This document shows, in pieces, positions 8,514 to 62,713 of a DNA stretch of 64,000 nucleotides. Made by a program: the position numbers and the translations under genes. Position 1 is the first letter of the stretch; every line of letters starts with the position of its first letter. Under the pieces are notes generated by a model. The model made no database searches. It worked only from the letters and a program-made list of their open reading frames with translations, and was not told the origin of the DNA. This DNA is from an uncultured Campylobacterales bacterium (lineage in GTDB: Bacteria > Campylobacterota > Campylobacteria > Campylobacterales > JAADDG01): NCBI GenBank assembly GCA_964450755.1, contig CAYVDJ010000100.1, positions 1,665 through 65,664 of the forward strand, read 5' to 3'.

Positions 8514-8583
8514 TTTGGAACCTTTTTTTAATCTGTTTTTTGGTATAGTAATATAAAAAATTATTATATCAAAGGCTCTCTGA

Positions 8584-8967
8584 ATGTTTACTTTTAATAA
8601 TAACTATATTTTAAAAAAAGTTCTGTTTTTATCTGTTTTAGCCATCTTTTCCCATGCCAAAGAGAGCGGTAAGACTCTCTATTCTACAAAAGGATGTTAT
8701 GCCTGTCACGGTGTGGATGCCAAAGGAAACAGCTCATATCCAAAACTTGCAAACAAACCGGAAAGTTATCTGATTTTGAGACTGAAAGCCTATAAAAAGG
8801 AGAAGATAAGATCAAAAAGAAGTGATATAATGACATCTTATGCCAAAAACCTTAGTGAAAAAGAGATAAAAGAGATTGCTTCGTTTTTAAGCGCTCTAAA
8901 GTCTGATACTACAAAAAAAGAGGAGTATTATGACGATGATTTTTTAACTAACGGTGAGGCGGATTAA
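8584..8967 (+). CDS. Class I c-type cytochrome (c553/c6-like), exported
   Basis: 127 aa. N-terminal signal-like hydrophobic segment, a single CYACH haem-binding motif, and a distal Met (IMTSY). Confidence 0.8.
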   Translation: MFTFNNNYILKKVLFLSVLAIFSHAKESGKTLYSTKGCYACHGVDAKGNSSYPKLANKPESYLILRLKAYKKEKIRSKRSDIMTSYAKNLSEKEIKEIASFLSALKSDTTKKEEYYDDDFLTNGEAD

Positions 8968-20222: not shown

Positions 20223-20297
20223 TGGCTCCGGATGCAGGATTCGAACCTGCGACCAAGTGGTTAACAGCCACCTACTCTACCGCTGAGCTAATCCGGA
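20223..20297 (-). tRNA. tRNA-Asn (GTT), CCA encoded
   Basis: Folded by hand. Acceptor TCCGGAT/ATCCGGA, anticodon loop CTGTTAA, T-loop GGTTCGAATCC. Confidence 0.95.
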
Positions 20298-32483: not shown

Positions 32484-32561
32484 CGGGGTGTAGCGCAGCC
32501 TGGTTAGCGCACCTGGTTTGGGACCAGGGGGTCGAAGGTTCGAATCCTTTCACCCCGACCA
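32484..32561 (+). tRNA. tRNA-Pro (TGG), CCA encoded
   Basis: Folded by hand. Acceptor CGGGGTG/CACCCCG, anticodon loop TTTGGGA. Confidence 0.93.
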
Positions 32562-32590
32562 TTAAAAATTGAATTTGGTTTTGAAAAGAC

Positions 32591-32668
32591 GGTGGGTGTA
32601 GCTCAGTTGGTTAGAGCATCAGGTTGTGGCTCTGAGGGTCGTGGGTTCGATTCCCATCACTCACCCCA
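32591..32668 (+). tRNA. tRNA-His (GTG) with G-1, CCA encoded
   Basis: Extra 5' G pairs with C73. Anticodon loop TTGTGGC. Confidence 0.93.
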
Positions 32669-32698
32669 TTGATATGAGCCGTTGAGTTATTTTCCTAT

Positions 32699-32771
32699 GG
32701 ATCATTAGCTCAGTTGGTAGAGCAACGGATTCTTAATCCGTGGGCCGTAGGTTCAAACCCTACATGATCCA
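32699..32771 (+). tRNA. tRNA-Lys (CTT), CCA not encoded
   Basis: Acceptor GGATCAT/ATGATCC, anticodon loop TTCTTAA. The 3' flank is CAG. Confidence 0.92.
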
Positions 32772-32782
32772 CAGTTTAAGAT

Positions 32783-32856
32783 GCGCCCGTAGCTCAATTG
32801 GATAGAGCAACGGACTTCGGATCCGTAGGTTATAGGTTCGACTCCTATCGGGCGTG
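32783..32856 (+). tRNA. tRNA-Arg (TCG), CCA not encoded
   Basis: Acceptor GCGCCCG/CGGGCGT (G1:U72), anticodon loop CTTCGGA. Confidence 0.92.
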
Positions 32857-32883
32857 CTTGTTAACGCCTTTGATTTTGATTAT

Positions 32884-32960
32884 GCGCTCGTAGCTCAGCT
32901 GGATAGAGCAACGGCCTTCTAAGCCGTAGGTCTCAGGTTCGAATCCTGACGGGCGTACCA
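32884..32960 (+). tRNA. tRNA-Arg (TCT), CCA encoded
   Basis: Acceptor GCGCTCG/CGGGCGT, anticodon loop CTTCTAA. Confidence 0.92.
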
Positions 32961-32968
32961 TTTTTTTA

Positions 32969-33053
32969 GCGGATGTGGTGAAATTGGTAGACACGCCAGA
33001 CTTAGGATCTGGTGCCGCAAGGTGTGGAGGTTCGAGTCCTCTCATCCGCACCA
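32969..33053 (+). tRNA. tRNA-Leu (TAG), long variable arm, CCA encoded
   Basis: Acceptor GCGGATG/CATCCGC, anticodon loop CTTAGGA, 13-nt variable arm. Confidence 0.93.
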
Positions 33054-43662: not shown

Positions 43663-45867
43663 ATGAAATCTTTGTTGTCAAAACTGGATCTGTCCGATTT
43701 TATAGACTATTTTTATGTTTTTCTCTCACGCAAAAAACCTCTTTTTATAGAGGGAGATGTAAATCTGCATCATAAATTTATAAAAGAGATCTCAAAACTT
43801 GACTTTACGCCTCCAAAAAAAGTGCAAAATTTGGATACCCAGCTTATGCATTTAAAAAAATTCGGTGTTTTAAAGATATATGAGATCTATGAGTTTGTAA
43901 AAATAATAAATTATTTCAGATACTTAAAAACTCTCTCTTTTGAGGGCAGTGTTTCCAACTGGCTTGAGAAAATAATCATACCCGAAGAGGTGATAAAAAT
44001 ATGCGGATATTTTAACCAAAAAGGCGAATTAAAAGAGGATGTGGATGATCAAATGTACTCCATATCCGTAAATCTGGAGAGAAACAAAGACAAGATAAGA
44101 ACTACGCTAAAGCGTCTTCTCTCTTCAAACAAATTATCAGCGTATCTGGTTGACAGGCAGATACACTATATCAATGAGGTTGAGTCGATTTTGGTAAGAG
44201 GCGGTTTTAACCATGTTCTAAAAGCTACCGTTGCGGGAAGAAGCAGCGGAGGATTTTTCTATGTGGTACCAAACAGTATAGAATCTTTGAAAAAAGAGGA
44301 AGCTGCACTTTTGAGTAAAAAAGATGAGATGATCTTTTCGTATGAAAAAAGCATCTCTTCCACATTTACAAAATTTTTAAAGTTTTTAAGTTATATCAAT
44401 AAAGAGTTTGACAGATTTGATCACTATCAGGCAAGAGTTCAGTTTGCAAAAGAGAAAGATCTTGAATTTATTCTTCCCTCTTCCTCTTCCAAAATCATAT
44501 TAAAAGATTTTGTTCATCCTGCTTTACATGATCCAAAACCGGTCAGTGTCAATTTTGAAAAAAAGATTTTGATGATAACCGGAGTCAATGCCGGTGGAAA
44601 AACGATGCTTTTAAAATCCATTTTATCAAGTGTGTTTTTGGCAAAATATCTTCTTCCCATGCAAATAGACAAACATCATTCCAAAATAGGACATTTCAAA
44701 GATATTGTAGCCGTTGTGGATGATCCCCAGAATGTCAAAAACGATATCTCAACATTTGCCGGAAGAATGGTGGAGTTTAGCAAACTGTTTGGTAAAAATC
44801 ATTTCATAACCGGAATAGACGAGATAGAGCTTGGAACGGATTCTGACGAAGCGGCATCTCTTTTTAAGGTTATTTTGGAAAAACTGCTTCATAAAAATAT
44901 AAAAATAGTTATCACCACCCATCATAAAAGACTTGCTTCAATGATGGCGACAAATGATGAAGTGGAACTAATGGCGGCTTTATATGATGAAGTAAACAGA
45001 AAACCAACTTATGAGTTTTTACAAGGAACGATAGGAAAAAGTTATGCCTTTGAAACGGCTGTGAGATATGGTATCCCCTCTTCTGTCGTAGCGGAAGCAA
45101 AAGAGGTTTACGGAAAAGACAAAGAGAAGCTAAACGAACTTATCCAAAAAAATATAGAGCTTGAACTCTCCATGAGAGAGAAAAAAAGAGAACTTGAAAA
45201 AGAGCTTTTAAAAGTGCAAAAGCAAAAAAGAAAGCTTGAAGAGGAGAAAGAGAGTTTTGACAGAGAGTTTTATACTCTAAAAAGCAGATATGAAAAAAGC
45301 TATCAAGAAGCGGTGGAAGAGGCAAAAAAAGCTGCAAAAGAGCAGAGCGTTCCTGATATCCACAAAGCTTTGAACAGAGCATACAAAAAGAAACAGGCGG
45401 TTTTTGAGGTTAAAAAAGAGCAGAAAAAACAGAAGATTCAAAAAGGGGATCGGGTAAAATACGGCAAAAACAGAGGTGTTGTACTCTCTTTGAAAAAAGA
45501 TGAAGCGATGATAGAGACAGATGAGGGTATAAAACTGAGAGTTCCTCTCTCAACTTTGAAAAGAAGCGGAAACATTCCGAAAATAAAACCAAAAACAACA
45601 GATATAAAAGTGGAAAAACCACAAAAAAGTTCTGTCACTTTAGACCTTCACGGTCTAAGAAGCCAAGAGGCGGTGGAGAAACTAGATAAATTTATATCTG
45701 ATGCTTTGATCAACGGCTTTGACGAAGTTCTTGTCTATCACGGAATCGGTACCGGAAAACTGGCATATGCCGTAAAAGAGTTTTTAAAAATTCATCCAAA
45801 AATAAAATCATTCGGCGATGCTCCCATAAAAATGGGAGGTTACGGGGCTACGGTGGTTGAGTTATAG
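43663..45867 (+). CDS. mutS2: Endonuclease MutS2 (MutS-II ATPase + C-terminal Smr domain)
   Basis: 734 aa with Walker A GVNAGGKTMLLK, DEIELGTD and Smr motif LDLHGLRSQEA...YHGIGTG. Confidence 0.92.
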   Translation: MKSLLSKLDLSDFIDYFYVFLSRKKPLFIEGDVNLHHKFIKEISKLDFTPPKKVQNLDTQLMHLKKFGVLKIYEIYEFVKIINYFRYLKTLSFEGSVSNWLEKIIIPEEVIKICGYFNQKGELKEDVDDQMYSISVNLERNKDKIRTTLKRLLSSNKLSAYLVDRQIHYINEVESILVRGGFNHVLKATVAGRSSGGFFYVVPNSIESLKKEEAALLSKKDEMIFSYEKSISSTFTKFLKFLSYINKEFDRFDHYQARVQFAKEKDLEFILPSSSSKIILKDFVHPALHDPKPVSVNFEKKILMITGVNAGGKTMLLKSILSSVFLAKYLLPMQIDKHHSKIGHFKDIVAVVDDPQNVKNDISTFAGRMVEFSKLFGKNHFITGIDEIELGTDSDEAASLFKVILEKLLHKNIKIVITTHHKRLASMMATNDEVELMAALYDEVNRKPTYEFLQGTIGKSYAFETAVRYGIPSSVVAEAKEVYGKDKEKLNELIQKNIELELSMREKKRELEKELLKVQKQKRKLEEEKESFDREFYTLKSRYEKSYQEAVEEAKKAAKEQSVPDIHKALNRAYKKKQAVFEVKKEQKKQKIQKGDRVKYGKNRGVVLSLKKDEAMIETDEGIKLRVPLSTLKRSGNIPKIKPKTTDIKVEKPQKSSVTLDLHGLRSQEAVEKLDKFISDALINGFDEVLVYHGIGTGKLAYAVKEFLKIHPKIKSFGDAPIKMGGYGATVVEL

Positions 45868-45886
45868 TCAAAAGAGAGTGAAGATA

Positions 45887-46348
45887 TTAAAAAGACTTGC
45901 TAAACACAGCCGGATTTCCTACATAAACCCCCTCTTTGTCTATATCTTTTGTTACAACCGCCCCTGCGCCTATGATGACATTATCGCAGATTTTAACAGG
46001 CAGGATTGTGGCGTTTGAGCCTATGTGGACATTGTTTCCTATAACTGTTTTTTGCCACTTTGTCGGATCTTTTGAGGGAGAGCCGGATGAGAATTTGTCA
46101 TTTATAAACATTACTCCGTGTCCTATGAAGCAGTTTTTACCGATACTGACCAGTTCACAGATAAAAGAGTGAGATTGTATGCGGCTGTTTTCTCCTATCG
46201 TTACGCCTCTTTGTATTTCACAAAAAGGTCCTACAAAAACATTGTTTTTCAGAGTGCATTCATAGAGATTTACCGGCTCTACGATCACAACATCTTTTCC
46301 CGTTTTTACATCTCTTATTGATACCTGATATCTCATCTTAAAACTCAT
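45887..46348 (-). CDS. Hexapeptide-repeat sugar N-acetyltransferase (WbpD/WlbB-like)
   Basis: 153 aa. Left-handed beta-helix repeats ([27 protein letters not shown]...). Last gene of the operon. Confidence 0.75.
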
Positions 46349-47426
46349 TTATTGCCTTTGCCACTTTCTCTATCTCCTCATTTTCCAAATGTTCTCCAAT
46401 AGGGATTGACAGAAGTTCTTTGTCACTTTTACAGGCGAAAAAGTCGGAAGTATCCTGTGTCAGATAGCTGTAGGCTTGAAGTTTCGGCAAAGCGGTGGGA
46501 TAGTGCATACCTGTTTGAATATCATTTTTGTTTAGATGCTCTATCAGTTTCTCTCTTTGTTTTACCCTCAAAACAAAAAGATGCCATACCGATTCTCTGT
46601 TTTTGTGAACAAAGGGGAGTGTAATTTTTTGGTTTTTTATATTTTGAAGATAAAAATTTGCTATCTTTTGTCTTTTTTTAATCCATCTTTTTAAATATTT
46701 TAGTTTTACATTCAAAACGGCTGCCTGTAAACCGTCAAGTCTGCTGTTTCTTCCCTCTATCTCATGAGAATATTTCTTTTTGCTTCCGTGGTTTGCATAA
46801 AGTCTTGATCTTTTTGCCAACTCTTCGTCATTTGTTACAACAGCTCCTGCGTCTCCGTAGGCTCCTAGATTTTTGCCCGGATAAAAGCTGAAAGTTGCCA
46901 TATCACCAAAATTTCCGACTTTCTTGCCTTTATAGACGGCTCCGTGAGCCTGAGCGCAGTCCTCTATCACTTTTAGGTTATATGCTTTTGCTATCTTGTT
47001 TATCTCGTCCATATCTGCCGGTTGACCGTAAAGATGAACGGCTATAATGGCTTTTGTCTTTTTGGTTATGAGTTTTTCTATGCTTTTTGGATCGATTAGG
47101 TAGTCATCTTTGACATCGGCAAATATGACTTTGTGAGAGTTTGTTGTTACACTCTCGCTTGTTGCTATGTAGCTGTTTGCAGGAACGATAACCTCGCTTT
47201 TTGGATCAAGTCTCAAAGAGTGCAGAGCTATCTCCAAAGCGTCCGTTCCGTTTCCGACTCCGATACAGTGTTTTACCTCATGAAAAGATGCAAAACTGTT
47301 TTCAAACTCTTTTAAAAATCTCCCCTCGATAAAAGCGTTCTCTTTTATCACGGTTTTTATCGCCTGATCAATCTCTTCTTGAATTGATTGATACTGTTTG
47401 TACAGATCCAAAAATTTTATACTCAT
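46338..47426 (-). CDS. DegT/DnrJ/EryC1/StrS-family sugar aminotransferase (WbpE/GnnB-like)
   Basis: 362 aa with [28 protein letters not shown] (PLP-Lys) and HGS motifs. Confidence 0.88.
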
Positions 47427-48412
47427 ATTCTCTCTTTTTTTACTCTTTGAAGTATTTGTGCTGATTTTAGGATGATATCTTCAGAGCTTAAAGTTTTTCT
47501 GCTATAAAGGATATAGTCTCTAAAAGCCTCTATTGCATTGTTTAAAGCCATCGAATCATCAAGTTTCGGTATGAAAATTTCATTCTCGGGATAGGAAATA
47601 TTGTTGTTATAAAGTTCGTTGTTTTTAAATTTTTCCTCAAGATAACTGCCGGTGGAGTATATCTTTATCTTGTTTTGGATTGTATCGTCATAAACTGCCG
47701 TTTTGTTTTCTCCCACTATTATCATCGATCTTACTTTGGATGGATTTATCCATGAGACATTGATATTTATATGGATATTTGAGATTGTATCTATCAGTAT
47801 ATTGGCTATTGCTTCTTTATTATTTGAATAATTTTTATATTTTTGGGTTGTTGTGCAACATCTTTTGATATTTAAATCTATCAAGTGGTCGATGATATAA
47901 AGATCATGAATAGCAAGATCATCTATCACTCCGTCATCATCCCTAAAAAGTCCGAAATTGAGTCTTTGTGAGTTTATATACAAAATTTTTCCAAAACTCT
48001 CTATCTCTCTTTTTAGATATTTGACGGCATTTGAGTATAAAAAGACAAAATCCACAAACAGTTTTTTATCCACTTTTTTGGCAAGTTCTATCAGCTCTTT
48101 TGTTTGCAAAAGAGTCTGAGCAAACGGTTTTTCCACAAAGATATGTTTTTTTGCTTTTAAAGATTTTTTTATCAATTCATAGTGTGTTTTTAGAGGTGTG
48201 GCTATAAAAACCGCCTCTATTTCGCTCTCCAAAAAGCTTTCTATAGTATCAAAAATTTTAAAATCATACTCCTCAGCGGCGCTTTTGATACTCTTTTGGT
48301 TTAGATCAAAGATCGAAAAAAGCTCCAGATTATCGGTGGCTTTAATCGTTCTTGCTATATTTCTGCCCCAATAACCGTATCCTATCAATCCTACTTTTAA
48401 ATGTTTCATCAT
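47423..48412 (-). CDS. Gfo/Idh/MocA-family sugar oxidoreductase (WbpB/GnnA-like)
   Basis: 329 aa with the N-terminal Rossmann motif [15 protein letters not shown] and EKPF. Confidence 0.85.
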
Positions 48413-48417
48413 TTTCC

Positions 48418-49488
48418 TTAAAGAAGCCTCTCTATCTCTTTTGTTATTTTTTCAAATTCGCACTTATCTTGGCAAAAAAATCTTTTGTTGTCAAATCTTT
48501 TGCCAATCATCTCTTTTGCAAACAAAAGACCTTTATTTGCATCATCAGTCCATTTTATCAGATTGTTATCGATGAGATATTTATCGTGAAAGAGCAGAAA
48601 TGACCTTGTCGATATCGTCGGGATTCCCATATAGGCGGCTTCAAGATTCATCGTTCCTCCTCCCCCTATCAAAAGATCGATAAAGGGATAAAACTCTTCT
48701 GGCATTATCTTCTCTTCCAAAATAGTTATATTTTTATCCTTTCCAAAAAGATGATAGAGGTGATCGCTTTCATATCTTGGCATGATGACGATATTTGCAT
48801 CTATGTTTTTGCTTATCTTTTTTGTCAGATCATACAGGATATCAAGTTTCTCTTTTACATAATTTGCTTTAAACTCCTCTTCTCTTACCAAAACGGTATA
48901 TCTGTTTTTGTCCAGATCAAATCTGTCTCTGAAATCTTTTGTTTTGTCTTTTTTTATCTCTTTCATCCACAGACAAATATCGATGAAACCGTACTCTTTG
49001 ATCTTTTTGGGATCGACTCCCGCCTTTACATAAATCTCCTGAGGTATGACAAACGGTCTGAAAATCAGAGTGGAAAGAGCAAAAGTGAGCCGTGAAACAA
49101 AAGTGATGTCGTCATAATTGAAGATATAATTTCTAAGAGGAGTATCGGCGAAATTGACTGAAGCTATTCCAAGAGCCGATGCTGTTTGTATCCCCTCCAC
49201 ACTTGCGCCGCTTAGATGGATTTTGGGGTATCCCTCCTTTTCAAAAAGCTCTGTAAAACCTTTTTGTCTCTCAATCCTTGATAAAAATTTGTCTCTTTTT
49301 GATATACCACCGTATTTTCCGATTATTTTGTGTTTTATGCCGTTTAAAGTCAGTATTTTTGAAGGCTCCTTATAATCCTCACTGTATCTTGTTGTGATGA
49401 GAGTTTTGTATCCCTTTTTGTGCCATAACGGAACCATTTTTGAGAAAAATACCGCATATTTTGGATCTGTGATATCTATCCAGATCAT
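48418..49488 (-). CDS. DUF354-family protein (GT-B/epimerase-like fold, uncharacterised)
   Basis: 356 aa. [15 protein letters not shown]...GYKTLITTR...IIGKYGG...[15 protein letters not shown] matches my recollection of the DUF354 consensus. Confidence 0.6.
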
Positions 49489-50435
49489 AAAGACTCCTCT
49501 TTTAGATATTTTTCAAAGTATTTTATCGTTTTTTCCAATCCCTCTTTTATATTGACTTTCGGTTTCCATTTTAATCTCTCTTTTGCCAAAGATATATCGG
49601 GTTTTCTCATCACCGGATCATCCTGCGGAAGGGGCAGATAGACAATCTTGCTTTTGGAGTTTGTCATCTCTATAACCATATCCGCCAACTCTTTTACGGT
49701 AAATTCCTGCGGATTGCCGATATTAACGGGACCTGTAAAATCATCTTTTGTATTCATCATTTTTACAAGAGCATCTATCAAATCCGCCTGATAGCAGAAA
49801 CTTCTTGTTTGAGAGCCGTCTCCGTAGATCGTGATATCTTCATCTTTTAGAGCCTGAACGATAAAATTGCTTACGACTCTGCCGTCTTTTGGGTGCATAT
49901 TTTCTCCGTAGGTATTGAAAATCCTTACGACTTTTATCTTTAGATTCAGTTGTCTTTGATAGTCGAAAAAGAGAGTTTCTGCGCATCTTTTGCCCTCGTC
50001 ATAACATGCCCTTATGCCGATTGGATTGACCGAGCCGTTATAGTGTTCTGGTTGCGGATGTATCTTCGGATCTCCGTAAACTTCGCTTGTACTTGCCTGT
50101 AAAATTTTGATATTGAGTCTTTTTGCAAGTCCGAGCATATTGATAGCGCCCATAACGGATGTTTTGGTGGTTTGAATCGGATCTTTTTGGTAATGAATCG
50201 GACTTGCCGGACAGGCGAGATTGTAAACCTCGTCAACTTCCGCATAATAGGGAAAACTGATATCGTGTCTTATCAGTTCAAAATATCTGTTATCCATCAG
50301 TTTTTCTATATTTCTTTTTGAACCGGTTATGAAATTGTCCAGACAAAGCACCTCATTGCCTTCATCCAAAAGCCTTTTGCAAAGATGGCTTCCGATAAAT
50401 CCTGCTCCGCCTGTTATCAGAATCCTCTTTTTCAT
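49485..50435 (-). CDS. UDP-glucuronate decarboxylase-type SDR (UXS-like)
   Basis: The ATG at 50435 sits in an ATGA overlap with the upstream stop; the track's GTG at 50456 is less likely. [30 protein letters not shown] and YDEGKR (YxxxK). Confidence 0.85.
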
Positions 50436-51520
50436 ATCTTCTCCATTTCTTTGCACGAGTGTTTTAATCTTTTCATGACGGCTTCTCTTGAGTAGCTTTG
50501 CAAAAACGAATCTTTGATATTTAGATCTATTCTGTTTTCAAGCAAAGAGATGATGATATTTAAAAGTTCTTTTTTGTTGTTATAGTAGATCGCTATCTCG
50601 TCAAACTCTTTGCTTTTGCAGGAGAATTTCGGAACGATGACTTTTCTCTTTAGAAAAATGGCATCGCCGTAAGTTGCCGATTCCATCGTTTTGCCGTAGC
50701 CAAAACTTTTTCTAAGAGGAGTCAAAAATATATCGCACTCGTTTGATAAAGAGATAAACTCTTCATCATTCAAAATTTTTGGGATATATTTTACTTTTAC
50801 AATTCTCTCAAACATTTTTGCAACGCCTTTGCATATCCTGCTCTCACAGTTTCCCACAAGCACAACGGTTATCTTTTCTCTTTGATCCTCATTCAAAGAG
50901 TGCAAAATATCGTAAAAGAGATCATAATCCTTTCTTCTTGGATCGATACTGATAAGACCTATCTCAATCCCGCTTTTGTCAATTCTTGGTTTTACGCTTG
51001 ATTTGATATCGCTAAAATAGCAGGGAATAACGGCTGTTGAAAAATTTTTTGCATTTTTACAGCTTTTTTTGAAATTGTTTTCTATCTGAATACTGTCAAA
51101 GGTGAGGCATTTTACATTTTTCAAAGCAAGGTGTCTTAAAAAATATCCCGTACTAAAACCTTTTATCTGATATCTGTCTATATTTCTTATATGCAAAATG
51201 ATCTTCTTTTTATAAAAAAGAGTAAAAAGATAGAAACCAAAAGTTATAGCTATGTTGCTAAACCAGTCTCTCCATTCGGGTCCTGTTTGTATAAAAACAA
51301 GATCATATTTTCGTGCGCGAAAAAGAAGTTTCCAGTAGATCGTGTTTTGGTTTTTTATATTTTCTTTACGGTTGCTTGGAACCTGCTCGACAAGTTCTCT
51401 GTTTTTGTAGATGATCGTATCTACCTCATCAAACTCTTTTTTAAAAAAAGAGTAGATATGAGAGAGGATTCTGTAATGAAAACTAAACTCGACTATCAGA
51501 GCTTTTTTAAATGGTTTCAT
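50432..51520 (-). CDS. Uncharacterised GT-B-like glycosyltransferase
   Basis: 362 aa. The C-terminal half (VLVGN...CDIFLTPL...[17 protein letters not shown]) resembles GT1/GT4 C-domains. The assignment is weak. Confidence 0.45.
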
Positions 51521-52571
51521 ATATATTCATCCTCTCAAATATCTGTAACAAAATATCGTTGATATCATATTTGTAATCCCACTCTTTATAGTGTGATCTA
51601 AATTTACCCACATCGCTTATCCACCAGATATGATCTCCTATACGGTTTGTTTTGCTGTATATATAGTTCATCTTCTTTCCGGTTATCTCTTCGCATATAG
51701 ATATGGCTTCCATGATGGAGCAGTTACTGTGTCTGCTTCCTCCCACATTATAGACCTCCGCATTTTTTGGATTTTTATAAAAGTGCCAAAACATATTGAT
51801 TAGATCAAAAGAGTGGATATTGTCTCTGACCTGTTTTCCTTTGTATCCGAGTATCGTATAGGTTTCACCGCTTATGGCGCATTTCATCAGATAACTTAAA
51901 AAGCCGTGAAGTTTTGTTCCGCTGTGGTTTGGTCCCGTCAGACATCCTCCTCTGAAAATTCCTGTTTTCATACCAAAATATCTGCCGTACTCCTGTACCA
52001 AAATATCTGCCGAAACTTTACTTGCGCCAAAAAGAGAGTGTTTTGTGTTGTCTATGCTCATTGACTCGTCTATACCGTTGAAATAGGGATGACTCTCTTC
52101 TATCTCCCATCTTGTTTCAAGCTCTTTCAGCGGTAAAAAGTTCGGTCTCTCTCCGTAAACCTTGTTTGTGGAGGTAAATATAAAAACACTTTCAAAAGAG
52201 TGCTTTCTCGCAGCTTCCAAAAGATTTAGAGTGCCTGTTGCATTGATGGAAAAATCTTTGAAAGGATCTTTTACCGCCCAGTCATGGCTTGGTTGTGCGG
52301 CTGTGTGGATTATCAGTTTGATATCTTTGTTGTACTCTTTGAAAATCTTTTCTATTGCGTTTTGTTCTCTTATATCCACATCATAATGGATATAGTTTGG
52401 TATTTTGTTTTTCAAATCTCTTTTGTTTTGGAGATTTGAAGCCTCTTTGCCAAAAAGCTCCTCTCTCATGTTGTTGTCTATCCCTATGACATAATCAAAT
52501 CTTTCTGCGAAAAATTCCACACTCTCTCTTCCGATAAGTCCGGCACTTCCCGTTATCAGACAAATATCCAT
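51507..52571 (-). CDS. NAD-dependent sugar epimerase/dehydratase (CDP-paratose-2-epimerase-like SDR)
   Basis: 354 aa with [20 protein letters not shown] (YxxxK variant region) and [11 protein letters not shown]. Confidence 0.8.
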
Positions 52572-53593
52572 TTCAACTCCTCCTGATTATCCTCGATCCA
52601 CTCCAAAGTTTCCATAATCGTATCTTTTATATCTCTTTTGGGTTTCCAGCCTGATTTTGAAATTTTGCCGTTATCGGTTATGTAGTATTTTATATCAAGC
52701 TCTCTGTTTTCTTTGAACAAAACGCTTTTGTCTTTTATAACCTTTTTGCAAAATCTATCCAGCTCTATCAGTGACAAAGAGGAGTTTAAACCTCCCCCCA
52801 CATTGAAAGTCTCTTTGTTAAAAAGAGTGAAATTGTGAATTTGAAGGTCGATAAGATCAAAAAGATCGTTTATATTCAAGATATCTCTTACCTGTTTGCC
52901 GTTGCCGAAAATCGTCAAAGGTTTGTCAAAAAAGTAACTTGCCACCCAAAACGCCACTATCCCCTGATCTGCTTTTCCAAACTGTCCGGCTCCCGCGATA
53001 ACACCGCATCTGTTGATAACGGCATCCAGTGAAAACATATTTACATATTCGTTTATGATAAGTTCGCTTGAGAGTTTTGTCGCTCCATAGAGTGTTCTGT
53101 ATCCTTTTAACGGCAGGTTTTCGCTAAAACCCTCTTTTGTAACTCCCTCTGTATCGTTTTGTCCCATCTCATATCTTGTATCGCTCTCTTTGTAATCAAG
53201 TGAGTTTATCAGATCAACGGGATAGACTCTGCTTGTAGATAAAAAGATGATTTTTGCCCTGTTTTTAAGAGAGATTTCCAAAGAGTTTATCAAGCCGCCC
53301 AGATTTGTGTCGATAAGATATTTTCTATCTCCGTCCATTCCCGCCAATACCGACGCTTCGGCACTTGCCTCTATCAGAAGATCAAAAGAGAGAGTGTTTA
53401 AATCGTCCATGTTTCTTATATCGCCGTGGATAAATTCTATATCATATTTTTTAAATTCTTTGAGGTTTAGTTCGCTTCCTCTTCTTCTTAGATTGTCAAA
53501 TACGACTATCTGATAATTTGGATATTTTGTTTTCAACTTTACAGCGATAGAACTTCCTACAAATCCCGCTCCACCCGTTATCAATATCTTCAA
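52556..53593 (-). CDS. NAD-dependent sugar epimerase/dehydratase (second SDR paralogue)
   Basis: 345 aa with [13 protein letters not shown] and YGATKLSSE (YxxxK). Confidence 0.8.
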
Positions 53594-53602
53594 TCACTCT
53601 CC

Positions 53603-54967
53603 TTAGGATTCTTGGAGTTGTTCAACAACTCTTTGCCATTTTCTGTTTCCGTCTGTTTCTCTGTTATAGTTTTCATCTATTTTTGCCTCTTCAAAATTTT
53701 TCAACTCCCCTTTTTGAGAAAGTGTGGAGAGAGGAGTTCCGTCCATCTCCGCACAGCCTGATGTCTGATAGCTGTCAAACTCCGCCTCTTCTATAAATCT
53801 CATAGTCATTCTCATCTGTTCGTAACTCTCTCCGGGCAGTCCGAAAGTAAAAGAGCCGTGAATACTCATACCGAGATTTTTGATATGTTTTATTACTTTT
53901 TTGGCATATTTTAGATCAAGATGTTTGTTTACAATTTTATCCACAACAAACTGGCTTCCGCTCTCAAATCCCAGACTTACACCAAAACATCCCGATTTTT
54001 TCATGATATCCCAAGTTTCCATCTTGATGGTATCTGCTCTGCACATGGCAGACCATGCAATATCATATTTTGCCAAAACCTCACACATCTCTTTTGTGTG
54101 CCTGTCTCCGAGGTTGAAAGTATCATCATCAAACCACAGTGATTTGAATTTCAGATCATTTACCAGATAATCCACATACTTTTCCATATACTCTTTGTTG
54201 TAGTATCTTACTTTTCTTATCTTTGTGCCGTCTGGATCATCTCCGCTCATCGTCGCAGGCCAGACGCAGAAGATACATTTAAAAGGACATCCTCTACTCG
54301 CCCAGACATGGGCATGGGGGAAGATCTGCCCAAGCGGTCTGTTGTTGTAGTAGTTATACAAGACATCTTTTTCAAAAAGCGGAAAAGGGGCATTGTTCAT
54401 CTCCTCTTCACTCAAAAGGTCATACTCTATAACTCCGCTCTCTCCTTTTAGAACTTTTACGCTTCCTTTCTCATATTCCCCTTTGATAACGGCATAGATA
54501 TCAAGCTCTTTTATGATCTCTTCTCCCCTTACACTGACGGGTCCTGTTATGATTATCTTGCTTTTTGGAGATATTTTTCGTATCTTTTTTATAAGAGTTT
54601 TGTCATGCTCAAAACTTGGGGTGGAGGACTCGAAAAATATATAATCAAAAAGCTCCTTTTTCAGATAGGAAAGATAACTCTCATAGGACTCTTTTCTTGC
54701 GATACTGTCTCTTAAGATGATCTTACAAGAGGTGTGTCTCTTTGCATAAGAGGCGGCATAAGCCATAAAATAGGGAAAAGGTATATAATCTTTATAGACA
54801 AAATTGTCAGGGCTTGACTGACCGAGATAGAGATACGGCCATCTGCTTCCGGCTCTTACTCCCTGATAGTATCTGTATTCTCTTTTTAACTCTCCCGTAT
54901 TCCAGTCTTTAAACTCCTGCCAGTTTTGTTCTCCCCACCATGGGGCGTTACAAAAGAGCGCTTTCAT
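53603..54967 (-). CDS. B12-binding-domain radical SAM enzyme (class B type)
   Basis: 454 aa. CxxxCxxC cluster motif RGCPFKCIFC is encoded at 54266-54289. The N-terminal 200 aa or so have a Rossmann-like cobalamin-domain pattern (KIIITGP...). Confidence 0.8.
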   Translation of the reverse strand: MKALFCNAPWWGEQNWQEFKDWNTGELKREYRYYQGVRAGSRWPYLYLGQSSPDNFVYKDYIPFPYFMAYAASYAKRHTSCKIILRDSIARKESYESYLSYLKKELFDYIFFESSTPSFEHDKTLIKKIRKISPKSKIIITGPVSVRGEEIIKELDIYAVIKGEYEKGSVKVLKGESGVIEYDLLSEEEMNNAPFPLFEKDVLYNYYNNRPLGQIFPHAHVWASRGCPFKCIFCVWPATMSGDDPDGTKIRKVRYYNKEYMEKYVDYLVNDLKFKSLWFDDDTFNLGDRHTKEMCEVLAKYDIAWSAMCRADTIKMETWDIMKKSGCFGVSLGFESGSQFVVDKIVNKHLDLKYAKKVIKHIKNLGMSIHGSFTFGLPGESYEQMRMTMRFIEEAEFDSYQTSGCAEMDGTPLSTLSQKGELKNFEEAKIDENYNRETDGNRKWQRVVEQLQES

Positions 54968-56985
54968 CTTTGCCCCGTGATGAGCTTTTGAAACTCTTTT
55001 GTATTTACATTGTTTAAAAACAGTTCCATATCTTTTTGGTTCGCTTTTGCAAGTTTTTTTCTCATATCTTTGTCTTTTATAAGAAGATTGCAGTTTTTTA
55101 TATAATCCTCTTTTGATTTTGAATAAGTTGTATGAAAAAGATCCAAATCGCCATAACAGCTCTCTATCGCTTTTTCATCTCTGTCCAAAGAGTATTTAAA
55201 ATACCAGTCGGCTGTCAAAGTGGCGCCAAAACCTTTGCTCATATATTCGTCTCTTGATGTGCCTTGGGGCATGGGGAAGGTATCCAAAAAGATATCGATA
55301 ACATATCCGTAGATGTTTGCATTTACCATCCACTCAAAGACAAATCTCTCTTTATCGATTTTCAGATCGCTCAATTTTGCCTCTATCGAATCGATATTGC
55401 CTACTCCACACGCCAAAAAGATGGCATCTTTGTTTTTATCAAGTATCTCTTTTACTGTTTTTAGATATTCGATACTGTCTAATTTTACATATCTGGTTAT
55501 AACGCCAAGAACCGTTTTGTTTTTAAAACGGTTCTCTTTTATCCTTTTTGCTTCCTGCTGTTCTTTGTTTGAACCCATCATGAATGAGGTATCTATCGAT
55601 ATATTAAATCTTTTGTATTCAAAAGTGGGAGAGTTTGGCATAAAATGGGAAATTCTCTCATCAATGCCTTCAACATCATATTCAAAATTTCCATGACACC
55701 AAAATATCTGTTTTGGTGCGGTTCGTGTGGCAAAGAGAAAATCCATGATGTCATAATTGTTCAAAGAACCTATCATGATATCTGTCTCTTTGTCTATCAA
55801 TATCTCTCTTATCTTTAAAGCTTTGCTTAAGTGATCATAAAAGAGTCCCTGCTCCTGGTTGATATCAAGTCCGGCTCTTATCACTTCGATACCGAGATCA
55901 TAAAGCTTTTCAAGTTCGTTTTGCTGATCTTCTGCTTTGTCTATATAGGTCAAAGAGACAAAAGAGATCTCATAATGTTTTTTGAACTCTTCATCTTTTA
56001 AGAGAGATTTTATCAGTGAATACTCTATCTTAAAAGGAGAGTTTTCCACTATTCTGTCTTTTATAAAAGCTATTTTTATTTTGCTGTTTGGATTTATCTT
56101 TTTGCATGGTTTGAGATTGTGTTTTTTTGCAAACTCTTTGTATGCCAAAGAGGCGGGTTTGTCAATCTTGCTGTTAAAAAGCCTCCACTCTTTTGGGCTT
56201 TGGTAGTTGTTACCGCATACACTGTATATAAAAAAATGAAGATACATCTGTGTTTGGATATCATCTCTTTTTATGGCTTCGTTGCAAAGGTCTGCAAAAG
56301 GATCAAAGAGTTTCAACCAGCTTTTATGATTGTGATAGGCGGGAATATTCCATGTAATGTGCAAAAGCCAGATAACAAGAGACCTTTGAGCTGCTCTTGA
56401 GGAGTTGAAAAAATTTTTTGCTTTGGCAAGTTGTAAAACGATATCGATAATCATCTCAAAATCCGGTTCATTATCATTTAAAAAACCTCTGAATGTCTCC
56501 ACCCCCAAAACAGCTCCGCTGCTGATAGCGGCGTTTATCTCCAAAGAGAAATTTCTTTTTATATACTCCCTGACACCTTTTTCAAAATCACCGTTTAGAA
56601 AGTCGCAGACGGCTACAAGGTGGTTAAAGATATATTTTTCACTTTTGTTTGGATCTGTTTGCAGAAAATTTTGTAAAAGATACTCTCTTAGAGCTTTTAT
56701 CGTGGGATCGGGTTGAAAAGAGACGATATCATGAAATGTTTTGTAAAGATTCAGCAGTTTGACAGAGGGCATCTCACCTTTTAAAAGAACATCATCTCTT
56801 ATTCTCTTTCTGAGAATTTCAAAATATTTTAGATAATACTCTTTGTACTCCTCTTTTTCTCTTATATCATATCTGCAAAAAGCTGCTATGGAGTCTTGGA
56901 GCAGATTTATATCCTGAATAGTTTGTAGTTTTTCAATCTCTTTCCCAAAAAGAGTGTTTTTGCCATTTTGTAAAGTATCTAACAT
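54964..56985 (-). CDS. GT41 (SPINDLY/O-GlcNAc-transferase/HMW1C-like) glycosyltransferase with helical-repeat N-terminal domain
   Basis: 673 aa. The C-terminal half follows the GT41 pattern as I recall it: KIKIAFIKDRIVENSP..., FATRTAPKQIFWCHGNFEYDVEGIDERIS, LGVITRYVKL..., IDIFLDTFPMPQGTSRDEYMSKG. First gene of the operon. Confidence 0.6.
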   Translation of the reverse strand: MLDTLQNGKNTLFGKEIEKLQTIQDINLLQDSIAAFCRYDIREKEEYKEYYLKYFEILRKRIRDDVLLKGEMPSVKLLNLYKTFHDIVSFQPDPTIKALREYLLQNFLQTDPNKSEKYIFNHLVAVCDFLNGDFEKGVREYIKRNFSLEINAAISSGAVLGVETFRGFLNDNEPDFEMIIDIVLQLAKAKNFFNSSRAAQRSLVIWLLHITWNIPAYHNHKSWLKLFDPFADLCNEAIKRDDIQTQMYLHFFIYSVCGNNYQSPKEWRLFNSKIDKPASLAYKEFAKKHNLKPCKKINPNSKIKIAFIKDRIVENSPFKIEYSLIKSLLKDEEFKKHYEISFVSLTYIDKAEDQQNELEKLYDLGIEVIRAGLDINQEQGLFYDHLSKALKIREILIDKETDIMIGSLNNYDIMDFLFATRTAPKQIFWCHGNFEYDVEGIDERISHFMPNSPTFEYKRFNISIDTSFMMGSNKEQQEAKRIKENRFKNKTVLGVITRYVKLDSIEYLKTVKEILDKNKDAIFLACGVGNIDSIEAKLSDLKIDKERFVFEWMVNANIYGYVIDIFLDTFPMPQGTSRDEYMSKGFGATLTADWYFKYSLDRDEKAIESCYGDLDLFHTTYSKSKEDYIKNCNLLIKDKDMRKKLAKANQKDMELFLNNVNTKEFQKLITGQR

Positions 56986-57085
56986 AATTTTACCGACTTT
57001 CCAAATATTTTAAAGTCTTAGAAAGCAAAAAACATTCCAAAAAGCCGACGGAAAGATGAATTTTAAAATTATCAAATATTTTATT

Positions 57086-57844
57086 TTATATTTCTATCAT
57101 ATCTTTTTCATAACATTGTGGATCAAATCGGCAGACTGTTTTGTTATCAAAATCTAAAAGTTCTTCTCTTTTGTCAGGATAATAAACACTGTTTAAAAAG
57201 TGTTTTATTGTATTGATACGGGCTGTTTTTTTGTCATCTGTGTGGATGATATTCCACGGGGCAAAATCAAAAGATGTTTTTGCAAACATTTCATCTCTTG
57301 CTTTTGAATATTCATCCCAAAGTTCCTGGGCTTTTGCGTCTATCGGGCTTAGTTTCCACTGTTTTAGGGGGTTTGTTCTTCTCTCTTCAAGCCTTTTTTT
57401 CTGCTCCTTTTTGGAGATGTCAAGATAGTATTTCAAAAAGATCATTTTGGAGTGAACCAAAAGCCTCTCATAGTTTCCAACTTCCTCTATGAAATCTTTA
57501 TACTCCTCATCTGTGCAAAATCCCATAACTCTCTCAACTCCGGCGCGGTTGTACCAGCTTCGGTTAAAAAATGCTATTTCTCCACCGCTTGGAAGATAGA
57601 TCGTGTATCTTTGAAAATACCATGAGATTTTATCTTTGTCGGAAGGTTTGCCAAGAGCCACGACTCTGGCTTCTCTGGGGCTTAGATGTTGTGTAAATCT
57701 TTTGATGGTTCCGTCTTTTCCCGCTGTATCTCTCCCCTCAAAGATGATACATACGGCGATTTTTTTTTCTATCACATATCTTTGAAATTTGACAAGTTCC
57801 ACCTGTAAGTCATAAAGTGTTTTTTTATACTCTTTTTTATCCAT
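57086..57844 (-). CDS. ppk2: Polyphosphate kinase 2
   Basis: 252 aa with FEGRDTAGKDGTIKR (Walker A), FNRSWYNRAGVERVMG and the lid motif. Confidence 0.92.
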   Translation of the reverse strand: MDKKEYKKTLYDLQVELVKFQRYVIEKKIAVCIIFEGRDTAGKDGTIKRFTQHLSPREARVVALGKPSDKDKISWYFQRYTIYLPSGGEIAFFNRSWYNRAGVERVMGFCTDEEYKDFIEEVGNYERLLVHSKMIFLKYYLDISKKEQKKRLEERRTNPLKQWKLSPIDAKAQELWDEYSKARDEMFAKTSFDFAPWNIIHTDDKKTARINTIKHFLNSVYYPDKREELLDFDNKTVCRFDPQCYEKDMIEI

Positions 57845-57899
57845 TTCCTATCTCCTTTTGGATATTATAACTCTTTGAGATAAAAATTAAGGTAAAAAG

Positions 57900-58826
57900 A
57901 TGAAAAAAGTTTACTTTCATAAGAAAGAGAAATATCCTTGGCAAAAGCCTAAACTCAAAGAAGAAGACCCAAAAGCACTAGCTCTTGTTGAAAAGATCAT
58001 GAACTCTCCTACCTATAAACTGGCGCAGGAGGATTGGGAATTTATAAATTCCGATGAGGCAAGGGCGATAAGGCTTCAGCTTGATTATCTAAAACCCGAA
58101 ATTCAGATGAGAAAATACGGAATCAAATATACTATCGTGGTTTTTGGAAGTTCGAGAATAAGAGAACGCAAAACGGCAATGAAAAAACTAAAGACGATTC
58201 AGAGAGAACTTGATAAAAATCCCGATTCAAAAGAGCTTTTAAGAGAGCTTGACATAGCCAAAAGAATGCTGAAAAAGAGTGTCTATTACGAAGATGCGCG
58301 ACATTTTGGAAGGCTGGTGGGCAAAAGCGGAAAAGGTCCCAATGACTGTAAAGTTACTGTTATGACAGGAGGCGGACCCGGTATCATGGAGGCAGCAAAC
58401 AGAGGGGCTTATGATGTGGGAGCCAAAACGATAGGACTAAACATCTCTCTTCCCCATGAGCAGTATCCAAATCCCTATATAACTCCTGATCTGTGTTTTT
58501 TGTTTCACTATTTTGCCATAAGAAAACTTCATTTTCTAAATCGTGCGAAAGCGTTGGTGATATATCCGGGCGGATTTGGTACTCTTGATGAACTTTTTGA
58601 GACTCTGACTCTCATTCAGACACAAAAAAATCAGGCTATTCCTGTTGTAATGATAGATAAATCATACTGGAGCAGGGCGATTGATTTTGATTTTTTAAAA
58701 GAGGAGGGAGTGATAAGCGGGGAAGATTTGGATATATTTACATTTGCCAAAAATGCTGTGGAGGCGTGGGAATATATTTTGGAGTGGTACAAAAAAAGGG
58801 ATATAGAGCTTTTCAATCACTTTTAG
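57900..58826 (+). CDS. LOG/TIGR00730-family nucleotide 5'-monophosphate nucleosidase-like protein (long form)
   Basis: 308 aa with GGGPGIMEAANRGA and PGGFGTLDELFE signatures, plus N- and C-terminal extensions. Confidence 0.85.
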   Translation: MKKVYFHKKEKYPWQKPKLKEEDPKALALVEKIMNSPTYKLAQEDWEFINSDEARAIRLQLDYLKPEIQMRKYGIKYTIVVFGSSRIRERKTAMKKLKTIQRELDKNPDSKELLRELDIAKRMLKKSVYYEDARHFGRLVGKSGKGPNDCKVTVMTGGGPGIMEAANRGAYDVGAKTIGLNISLPHEQYPNPYITPDLCFLFHYFAIRKLHFLNRAKALVIYPGGFGTLDELFETLTLIQTQKNQAIPVVMIDKSYWSRAIDFDFLKEEGVISGEDLDIFTFAKNAVEAWEYILEWYKKRDIELFNHF

Positions 58827-61408: not shown

Positions 61409-62713
61409 ATGTCAAATAAACTTTTTATAGAGACTTTAGGTTGTGCTATGAATGTGAGGGATTCTGAACATATCATAGCCGAACTTACCAAAAAAGAGAA
61501 CTATACTTTAACCGGCAGGATAGAAGAAGCCGATCTTATTATCATAAATACATGCAGTGTCAGAGAGAAACCTGTCCATAAACTATTTTCAGAAATAGGT
61601 CAGTTTAAGAAGAAAAAGAGAAAAGACGCAAAAATAGGTGTATGCGGTTGTACGGCAAGTCATCTAGGAGAAGAGATTATCAAAAAAGCTCCTTTTGTGA
61701 ATTTTGTTTTAGGAGCGCGAAATGTCTCTAAAATATCAAAAGCTATAAAAGAGGACAAATATGTAGATGTGGATATAGATTATGATGAGAGCGGTTATGC
61801 TTTTAGTGATTTTAGAAGCAACCCTTATAAAGCTCTTATCAATATCTCCATAGGGTGTGATAAAAGCTGCACCTATTGTATCGTGCCAAATACAAGAGGA
61901 GATGAGATATCAATTCCATCGGAACTTATTTTACAGGAAGCAAAAAAAGCTGCAAAAGCAGGAGCAAAAGAGATCTTTTTGCTTGGACAAAATGTTAATA
62001 ATTACGGTAAAAGATTCAGTGACCCAAATGCCAAAAAGGTTGATTTTTCCGATCTTTTGGAGATGGTCTCAGCAATAGACGAGGTTAAGAGAATCCGTTT
62101 CACATCACCGCATCCTCTCCATATGGATGATCATTTTTTGGAAGTTTTTGCCAAAAACAGAAAAATATGCAAATCAATGCATATGCCCTTACAAAGCGGT
62201 TCTACCAAAATTTTACAGGATATGAAAAGAGGATATACAAAAGAGTGGTTTTTAAACAGAGCATTGAAATTGCGGCAAATGATACCCGATGTTCATATAA
62301 GTACCGATATTATCGTTGCATTTCCGGGTGAAGATGAAAAGGATTTTGAAGATACTCTTGATGTGATGAGAAAAGTGAGATTTGATCAGATATTCAGTTT
62401 TAAATACTCTCCAAGACCATTGACAAAAGCCGCTGAATTTTCAAATCAGATAGATTCCAAAACAGCTTCAAAAAGACTCAACAGAGTGCAGGAACTTCAT
62501 AATGAGATACTAGATGATAAAATATCCAAAGAGGAGGGTAAGATTTATGAAGTCTATTTTGAAGAGTTAAGAAGTGATAATCAGGTAGCCGGAAGAAGCG
62601 ATAACAACTATCTTGTTTGTGTCAAAGGAAGTGAGGAACTTTTGGGTAAATTTGCCAAAGTCAAGATTACAAATCCGAGGAGACTGACTCTTTTTGGGGA
62701 AGTGATTGAGTAA
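61409..62713 (+). CDS. miaB: tRNA-2-methylthio-N6-dimethylallyladenosine synthase
   Basis: 434 aa. UPF0004 Cys triad (C..C..C), radical [15 protein letters not shown], and a C-terminal TRAM domain. Confidence 0.93.

Follow-up and report, generated by a model that had tools for sequence, protein, structure and literature searches.

Gene organization at the radical SAM locus

In a 64-kb window of DNA (the whole stretch of 64,000 nucleotides analyzed here, from contig CAYVDJ010000100.1 of an uncultured Campylobacterales bacterium; all window coordinates count from its first letter), we investigated a gene encoding a radical S-adenosylmethionine (SAM) enzyme, hereafter rSAM. The gene occupies 53603..54967 on the minus strand and consists of a 454-aa open reading frame (ORF) starting with ATG, whose product we describe as an HpnJ-like radical SAM enzyme of class-B architecture; the plus-strand frame of the same interval is full of stops. 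It is the second of ten tightly packed minus-strand genes (56985 to 45887), between which no overlap or gap exceeds 25 nt, and it is followed, as genes 3 and 4, by two short-chain dehydrogenases/reductases (SDR1 and SDR2). As a first-pass annotation, made from the letters alone, had pointed out, the start of rSAM shares four nucleotides (ATGA) with the stop of the upstream GT41-like glycosyltransferase gene, and the sequence reads accordingly (...CAA AGA TGA / ATG AAA...), which supports rSAM being embedded among sugar genes and coupled to them in translation. Downstream, 9 nt separate the rSAM stop from SDR1. The ORF represents a real gene, since a 100% identical protein is encoded on five other contigs, one of which is the NCBI metagenome-assembled genome (MAG) GCA_054028935.1. 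The window also contains a second radical SAM gene of the MiaB/RimO type (UPF0004, Radical_SAM and TRAM domains; 61409..62713, plus strand), which lies 6.4 kb away and is unrelated to rSAM.

The sequence RGCPFKCIFC begins at residue 225 of rSAM. When recomputed, the eight codons of its CxxxCxxC motif (C227-x3-C231-x2-C234) span 54266..54289 on the minus strand, exactly where the earlier annotation had located them. The three cysteines are invariant among 30 aligned homologues and are the predicted ligands of the radical SAM [4Fe-4S] cluster. Furthermore, the Pfam profile PF04055 (Radical_SAM) matches with E=1.1e-17 and 65.2 bits, compared with a gathering score of 29.5. By its cluster motif, its PF04055 score and the barrel-fold matches described below, rSAM belongs to the radical SAM superfamily.

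Domain architecture and cobalamin binding

The architecture of rSAM was modeled with AlphaFold2 (AF2) from 30 homologues, giving a mean predicted local distance difference test (pLDDT) score of 88.4. In the model, residues 1 to ~185 (54413..54967, minus strand) make up an N-terminal Rossmann-type domain of B12-binding-like appearance, which also has a weak match to Pfam PF02310, and the remainder of the chain forms the radical SAM barrel. More specifically, the N-terminal domain is five-stranded (β1, residues 2-7; β2, 82-87; β3, 109-113; β4, 137-141; β5, 159-161), with helices in between. Strand 1 is followed by a 58-residue β-hairpin insertion (residues 8-65) that carries the motifs NPPWW and GVRAGSRWP, both invariant in the homologue alignment, and β3 is followed by an STPSF loop. 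A Foldseek search of the PDB with the whole chain returned, in ranked order, AprD4 (E=1.9e-18), MgmA (4e-16), TsrM, MiaB, CysS, OxsB and TokK. These whole-chain matches confirm the class-B architecture at the fold level, and with it the Rossmann-like domain that had been proposed to precede the barrel. MiaB places a second Fe-S cluster in the equivalent domain.

The PF02310 (B12-binding) match covers residues 70-167 of rSAM with E=1.8e-5 and 25.0 bits, under the gathering score of 32.1, and 27 of the 30 homologues match the same profile at E<=0.01 (best E 1e-8). A profile of the N-terminal domain (residues 1-200, 12 sequences) compared with all PDB sequences produced only noise (a DsbA-like match at E=0.003) and no cobalamin-binding domain; sequence is therefore unable to confirm B12 binding by rSAM. 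Nor can it decide the question, since AprD4 and ArsL share the Rossmann-like fold yet are without cobalamin (2026 review, PMC12931638). The alignment to MgmA (PDB 9ccb), in turn, reaches into the rSAM N-terminal domain, where TGPVS...GEYE is paired with GGPVS...GEGE. An Rfam scan revealed no cobalamin riboswitch in the window, whose genes were not screened for cobalamin functions; with only 64 kb covered, this is weak evidence. On balance, cobalamin binding by rSAM appears somewhat probable.

Several of these observations would suit a cobalamin-dependent C-methyltransferase, in which methylcobalamin is bound by the N-terminal domain, the 5'-deoxyadenosyl radical takes hydrogen from a sugar C-H, and the methyl group is moved to yield a C-methyl (branched) sugar. 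The class-B architecture, the PF02310 matches of the homologues and the MgmA alignment all argue for such an enzyme, as does the finding that the majority of characterized class-B enzymes methylate (PMC12931638). Further methylases of the cobalamin-dependent radical SAM type known from the literature are GenK, Fom3 and MoeK5. A suitable product exists, in that 3-C-methyl-D-mannose occurs in a Helicobacter pylori O-antigen (PMC12961483), and a step from gluco to manno would be in keeping with a 2-epimerase-like SDR. The NCBIfam matches of rSAM moreover include the methylases PhpK, MgmA/MJ_0865 and Sden_1168, but every methylase model stays far under its cut-off and below the HpnJ score (see below). 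The noise from the N-terminal profile and, weakly, the missing riboswitch also count against a methyltransferase, and rSAM, with 454 aa, is without the C-terminal domain of TokK, TsrM and OxsB, whose chains span 530-731 aa. The first-pass annotation, which cited Fom3, GenK, TsrM and BchE, had suggested C-methylation or another radical modification of the sugar; C-methylation in particular is not indicated by our results. Those enzymes are distant, and the nearest named family is HpnJ, with its putative ring contraction. We regard a C-methyltransferase as unlikely, though not strongly so.

Two further observations on cobalamin were set aside. The occurrence of the family in SAR11 was dropped as an argument against B12 dependence, SAR11 being described in the literature as a B12 auxotroph with B12-dependent enzymes. 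In a Verrucomicrobiales MAG (L010, about 7500-8722), a protein with a URO-D (MtaA-like) domain is encoded just upstream of the rSAM homologue. URO-D-fold proteins include corrinoid methyltransferases. Because it was seen in one locus only and its long ORF is in part an artefact of high GC, this neighbor was rejected as a corrinoid link.

Relationship to known radical SAM families

No NCBIfam model attains its curated cut-off on rSAM. The best match is HpnJ (TIGR03471), with 156.5 bits over residues 87-432 and a cut-off of 577.6, followed by PhpK (TIGR04479; 118 bits, barrel only, cut-off 600 not reached), a ladderane-type model (80 bits), ApyD (75), MJ_0865/MgmA (67) and the AprD4 diol-dehydratase model (NF033070; 63.1 bits, cut-off 500 not reached). 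The assignment by hidden Markov models that had been suggested earlier is thereby borne out for PF04055, which lies above its cut-off; PF02310 falls short of its own, and no TIGRFAM or NCBIfam subfamily is reached. No phosphonate-pathway gene (phosphoenolpyruvate mutase) was matched by Pfam in the ten operon genes.

In a direct BLASTP comparison, rSAM and HpnJ of Paraburkholderia graminis share 27% identity over 329 aa (E=4e-32). From genetics, HpnJ is the putative enzyme that turns bacteriohopanetetrol glucosamine into a cyclitol ether by contracting its glucosamine ring (PMC13459092). We rejected the identification of rSAM as HpnJ itself because of three findings. The score lies far below the HpnJ cut-off. 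No hopanoid genes are nearby: hpnH, hpnI, hpnK and squalene-hopene cyclase are absent among the rSAM neighbors, which are SDRs and glycosyltransferases. Finally, a 50%-identical homologue is present in Azospirillum brasilense Sp7, a strain whose sole detected hopanoid derivative is adenosylhopane (PMC12583986). The GT2 glycosyltransferase found downstream in the rSAM family was likewise rejected as an HpnI orthologue, with a pairwise identity of only 24% over 128 aa; the gene order is an analogy.

Among solved structures, AprD4 (PDB 6fd2; a 1,2-diol dehydratase of apramycin biosynthesis) is closest to rSAM in sequence (E=3.5e-11, and E=1.1e-19 with a profile) as well as in fold (TM-scores 0.64-0.67 for the top-ranked Foldseek match). 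An AprD4-like, cobalamin-independent radical dehydratase or dehydrogenase would convert a sugar diol or alcohol into a keto-deoxy or keto sugar, and SDR1, perhaps as a heteromer with SDR2, would then reduce the product to a deoxy or epimerized sugar. AprD4 acts on a sugar and has the Rossmann-like domain without cobalamin (PMC12931638), and the need for a reductase would explain the tight SDR pairing in half of the loci described below. However, the AprD4 model scores well below HpnJ, the sequence alignments to AprD4 span the barrel only and not the N-terminal domain, and many loci, including those of cyanobacteria and Verrucomicrobia, have rSAM with no SDR nearby. We consider a dehydratase or dehydrogenase of this kind improbable.

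The SDR pair

SDR1 (52556..53593, minus strand) is an extended SDR of 345 aa and SDR2 (51507..52571, minus strand) a TyvE-like SDR of 354 aa; the two genes overlap by 16 nt. Pfam and PDB matches agree with the two SDRs that had been reported just downstream of rSAM, and both proteins are closest to CDP-tyvelose 2-epimerase: SDR1 matches PDB 9rl0 with E=4.6e-43 and 1orr with E=2.1e-40, and SDR2 matches 9rl0 with E=2e-38 as well as 1orr. The catalytic Tyr is kept in SDR1 (YGATK), and YG..K is found in 29 of 29 aligned sequences, comprising the window protein and 28 orthologues. In SDR2, the Tyr is replaced by Phe (FGASK aligned with YGCSK), and 25 of the 27 sequences compared (the window protein included, with orthologues from loci L001-L068) have FG[AV]SK. 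The presence of a Tyr-less SDR2 beside a canonical paralogue suggests, from the alignments, either a heteromer with one non-redox (pseudo-enzyme) subunit or the use of a different catalytic base.

Distribution of the family and its gene neighborhoods

A protein search with rSAM returned 2956 protein clusters at E<=1e-5, a count that includes other radical SAM families; among the matches listed, at least 120 are full-length homologues with 51-66% identity. Their named sources include Nitrospira lenta, cyanobacteria, Myxococcota, Phycisphaeraceae, Skermanella and Rhodospirillaceae. In species-representative (GTDB) genomes, at least 570 matched stretches encode rSAM relatives, 80 of which served as loci for the neighborhood analysis. 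These 80 include 16 from Pelagibacteraceae (SAR11), together with Magnetococcales, Azospirillum, Paramagnetospirillum, Verrucomicrobiota, Geomonas and Solidesulfovibrio. With 50-66% identity, rSAM is strongly conserved across Nitrospira, cyanobacteria, Verrucomicrobia, SAR11 and Azospirillum.

Within this set, 38 loci are well flanked, with at least 6 kb on either side of the rSAM homologue. Both SDR1 and SDR2 are present in 19 of the 38, with hosts that include SAR11, Azospirillum, Nitrospira and Magnetococcales, and a GT2 of ~285 aa lies directly downstream of rSAM in 16 (42%). The GT2 start falls within 854 nt of the rSAM stop in 22 loci, and in 19 of these the distance is within ~40 nt. 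When the window neighbors were used as tblastn queries, SDR1 (~40% identity) and SDR2 (52-62%) were found to adjoin rSAM in about half of the 80 loci. A Pfam scan of 122 immediate neighbors identified 23 NAD-epimerase/dehydratases and 13 GT2s, as well as GT1/GT4, methyltransferases, GT17 and Wzx. The order of genes varies among hosts: GT1, rSAM, Wzx, GT2, methyltransferase, SDR, SDR in Nitrospira lenta; Wzx, rSAM, GT2 in a cyanobacterial locus; SDR followed by rSAM in Skermanella; and glycosyltransferase, SDR, SDR, rSAM, glycosyltransferase on plasmid p5 of A. brasilense Sp7, which encodes the 50%-identical homologue AMK58_RS29225. A nucleotidyltransferase conserved with the rSAM/SDR cassette was not found among the compared loci.

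Members of the rSAM family are nearly always found among glycan genes, and no other result of this analysis is as robust as this association. Loss of co-conservation with the sugar genes in related genomes had been named by the first-pass annotation as a ground for giving up its reading; instead, the linkage holds across unrelated phyla, in the neighborhoods as well as in annotated loci. It also bears on the idea that rSAM acts on a non-sugar substrate, such as the acceptor protein or a lipid carrier, and only shares its location with glycan genes. The relatives MgmA, Mmp10 and ApyD do act on peptides, and a protein-type glycosyltransferase heads the operon. Against this, the association with SDRs and glycosyltransferases is kept across phyla while other neighbors change completely, and no conserved peptide- or lipid-pathway gene was found alongside rSAM among the neighbors of the compared loci. 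A non-sugar substrate is, in our assessment, quite improbable.

Some individual loci deserve description in their own right. On plasmid p5 of A. brasilense Sp7 (L092, 7241-16147), rSAM has 577 aa, with a C-terminal extension of ~125 aa, and is accompanied by SDR1-like and SDR2-like proteins and two flanking GT-B glycosyltransferases of ~798 aa. A CBM60/beta-helix/RTX protein adjoins this cassette, and the host is genetically tractable. On a plasmid of Eleftheria terrae (L094, 4570-12246), a distant rSAM relative (25% identity) is grouped with genes for a PIG-L deacetylase, an oxidoreductase, a WecB-type glycosyltransferase, a second 'cobalamin-dependent protein', an SDR and GT4s. By analogy, this gene set echoes the HpnI/HpnK/HpnJ logic of a glycosyltransferase, a deacetylase and a radical SAM enzyme. 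In three further loci (L005 11361-15194, L009 11311-15303 and L011 11368-15321), ORFs of 1277-1330 aa start immediately after the rSAM stop. They carry a C-terminal GT4, in L011 also a methyltransferase domain, and their N-terminal 600-800 residues have no Pfam match.

The GT41-like gene and its link to Helicobacter flagellin loci

The first gene of the operon (54964..56985, minus strand) encodes a GT41-like glycosyltransferase of 673 aa, whose model is helical in the N-terminal half and of the GT-B type in the C-terminal half. The protein has no Pfam or NCBIfam match, including to GT41 and TPR. Its AF2 model (pLDDT 84) was compared with the PDB, and the top 38 Foldseek matches are all GT41 enzymes, led by SPY, XcOGT and human OGT (E=4e-14 to 1e-10), with TM-scores of only 0.40-0.47 and 10-14% identity. 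The GT41 identity given to this gene by the first-pass annotation is reasonable at the level of the modeled fold, though the TM-scores are low and Pfam gives no match. Only 35 homologues were found, and those with a taxon name belong to Helicobacter or Campylobacterales.

The order GT41-like, rSAM, SDR1, SDR2 is kept in two diverged low-GC contigs, in which rSAM is 65% and 63% identical. By tblastn, no GT41-like gene adjoins an rSAM homologue in the 80 GTDB loci, so that the linkage, seen only in Campylobacterota-like low-GC contigs, is lineage-specific. Just upstream of this GT41-like/rSAM/SDR block, one contig (L091, 712-2365) has a methyltransferase and split genes resembling transketolase (Transketolase_N and Transket_pyr), which might add a two-carbon branch to a sugar.

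In Helicobacter sp. CaF467b (L088, 4474-11049) and in a metagenome contig (L089, 5286-11361), GT41-like homologues adjoin flagellin and Maf (MptE-like) genes. The Helicobacter locus continues with DUF354, GFO/IDH/MocA, hexapeptide and DegT genes that are 28-71% identical to the last four operon genes of the window, and the metagenome contig has only DegT and hexapeptide copies, which are more distant.

Remaining genes of the operon and its surroundings

The SDR pair is followed by a probable GT-B glycosyltransferase of 362 aa (50432..51520, minus strand), which has a weak Glycos_transf_1 match (E=0.004) and none at E<=0.001; a 39%-identical homologue comes after SDR2 in another locus (L090). 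The next gene, at 49485..50456 (minus strand), encodes an SDR resembling UDP-glucuronate decarboxylase (UXS/ArnA-type; Pfam Epimerase and GDP_Man_Dehyd, ~1e-48). Its NCBIfam match to UDP-xylose synthase (1.8e-33) is under the cut-off, and copies with 68-69% identity are present in L001, L067 and L091. The last four genes, all on the minus strand, encode a DUF354 protein (48418..49488; PF04007 E=1.6e-36), which is 47% identical to a gene of the Helicobacter flagellin-linked cluster; a GFO/IDH/MocA oxidoreductase (47423..48412; PF01408 E=1.5e-26), a candidate sugar 3-oxidase of the WbpB type; a DegT/DnrJ/EryC1 sugar aminotransferase (46338..47426; PF01041 E=2.6e-115; 51% to the Helicobacter counterpart); and a hexapeptide-repeat acyltransferase (45887..46348; PF00132 E=1.4e-21; 71% to the Helicobacter counterpart). 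As a whole, the operon resembles a protein-glycosylation module of the flagellin type with the rSAM/SDR cassette, the GT-B and the UXS-like decarboxylase inserted, because GT41-like homologues adjoin flagellin and Maf in L088 and L089 and, in the Helicobacter locus L088, are followed by counterparts of the last four operon genes.

The identical ten-gene cluster also occurs in a second assembly from this taxon (L082), where PCMT, CN-hydrolase and the small subunit of ribonucleotide reductase (RNR-small) follow it; in the window, MutS2 takes this place (compared over 43663..46348). This suggests that the cluster is located in a variable or mobile island, since the genes past its last gene differ between assemblies. 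A promoter and terminator scan of 45400-58200 gave counts as in shuffled sequence (39 vs 34.9 and 9 vs 9.0, respectively) and so no evidence on operon boundaries. Upstream, a polyphosphate kinase 2 (PPK2) gene (57086..57844, minus strand) lies on the same strand, 100 nt from the operon. The Rfam scan of the window found seven tRNAs, six within ~570 nt at 32484..33050 (plus strand) and one at 20226..20297 (minus strand), and no other family above threshold.

Proposed role of rSAM in glycan tailoring

With a probability of roughly 0.8, we read rSAM as a sugar-tailoring radical enzyme of a glycan pathway. For the reaction itself, an HpnJ-type rearrangement is ranked first because the only family-specific signatures, together with the order of rSAM and GT2, point to HpnJ; the choice is a narrow one and, taken by itself, less likely than not. 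In such a reaction, the [4Fe-4S] cluster of rSAM would reductively cleave SAM, and the resulting 5'-deoxyadenosyl radical would abstract hydrogen from an unactivated carbon of a hexose, which would be either still the nucleotide sugar on which SDR1/SDR2 act or a sugar already moved by a glycosyltransferase. The sugar radical would then undergo a change of its carbon skeleton, by which its ring is contracted or a carbocycle formed, without methyl transfer and without any net change in mass. Ahead of the radical step or following it, the SDR pair would fix the configuration or the oxidation state at C2/C4. In parallel, the GFO, DegT and hexapeptide genes may provide a 3-acetamido sugar, and the GT41-like enzyme would attach the tailored sugar and the 3-acetamido sugar to protein, most likely flagellin or another surface protein.

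Several points weigh against this proposal. To our knowledge, bacterial glycans described so far very rarely contain carbocyclic sugars. HpnK, the deacetylase partner of HpnJ, has no counterpart in the operon, and both the SDR pair and the GT2 are missing from 13 of the 38 well-flanked loci. By tblastn, the 64-kb window contains no flagellin or Maf gene, because of which the acceptor protein of the operon is only inferred. PhpK, the second-best NCBIfam match, is a methylase, and an identity of 27% does not fix the chemistry within the radical SAM superfamily. The HpnJ reaction itself is inferred from a knockout only (PMC13459092), and most characterized radical SAM enzymes with a cobalamin domain are methylases (PMC12931638). 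Outcomes other than rearrangement, C-methylation, dehydration or a non-sugar substrate carry a slim chance.

The rSAM family is a new, uncharacterized branch of class-B-type radical SAM enzymes with a recurrent SDR-pair/GT2 wiring, joined here by a GT41-like gene. Sugar tailoring by radical SAM enzymes is an established part of antibiotic pathways (GenK, AprD4, DesII, BtrN), and a single lipid head group is a further, proposed case (HpnJ). Its rarity in cell-surface or protein glycans, as put forward in the earlier annotation, agrees with our reading of the literature: full-text searches aimed at such enzymes found neither a characterized member of the rSAM family nor an analogous surface- or protein-glycan enzyme. 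It is possible, though short of probable, that rSAM, SDR1 and the Tyr-less SDR2 constitute a widespread mobile pathway to a non-canonical monosaccharide (carbocyclic, ring-contracted or C-branched), serving surface polysaccharides in most phyla and GT41-like, flagellin-type glycosylation in Campylobacterota. If true, the product would be the first building block in the cell-surface or protein glycans of bacteria to be made by a radical SAM enzyme. The identity of the product would add a new monosaccharide-forming reaction to glycobiology and could explain unassigned sugars in lipopolysaccharide or flagellin glycans. Hosts of the family include SAR11, which is ecologically dominant, and A. brasilense, a model for plant association. 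The family would give HpnJ a tractable relative with a soluble substrate and, through its consistently Tyr-less SDR2 partner, suggests an unusual SDR role.

Comparison with known systems

At the head of the operon, the GT41-like protein resembles OGT, SPY and XcOGT in its model, which combines a helical N-terminal half with a GT-B catalytic half, at the low TM-scores given above. It differs from them in sequence, given the low identity noted above, and in its distribution, the family being confined to Helicobacter and Campylobacterales among named relatives.

CDP-tyvelose 2-epimerase (1orr, 9rl0) is the best PDB match of both SDRs over their full length (E=1e-35 to 1e-43), and the STNKVYG region is conserved. 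With respect to the Ser/Thr-Tyr-Lys triad, SDR1 conforms and SDR2 does not. Furthermore, no cytidylyltransferase or 3,6-dideoxyhexose genes are conserved near SDR1/SDR2, and the papers on TaTyvE mention no radical SAM neighbor.

The cobalamin-dependent methylases MgmA/QCMT (9ccb), TsrM, TokK and CysS resemble rSAM in having a Rossmann-type domain N-terminal to the barrel, and MgmA is of the same length. Their identity to rSAM is 12-18%, and the C-terminal domain of TokK, TsrM and OxsB sets these three apart. AprD4 is similar to rSAM in size, in its two-domain layout and in acting on a sugar. The structural alignment of the two shows 17-18% identity, with sequence similarity only in the barrel, and AprD4 belongs to an antibiotic pathway, whereas rSAM is encoded in a cell-surface glycan locus.

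The comparison with HpnJ extends over the chain and into the gene order. HpnJ (473 aa, compared with 454 aa for rSAM) and rSAM share LF..(A/P)P(S/W)(Y/W) and G.AGSR(Y/W) near the N-terminus, an STPSF..D loop that follows the third strand of the Rossmann domain, FC.WP.T immediately behind the cluster motif, and the motifs FDDDTF and GLPGE. The substrate of HpnJ is a sugar residue (PMC13459092, PMC12583986), and the GT2 gene hpnI comes right after hpnJ with a 4-nt overlap (L093), as a GT2 also lies directly downstream in the rSAM family. In contrast to HpnJ, rSAM has an extra hairpin of ~30 residues between NPPWW and RAGSRWP, its family is often paired with two TyvE-like SDRs, and it occurs in glycan loci, including that of A. 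brasilense Sp7, where no cyclitol-ether hopanoid is made (PMC12583986). Taken at the level of sequence, the shared signatures support kinship of rSAM to HpnJ, as a relative and not as a member of that family.

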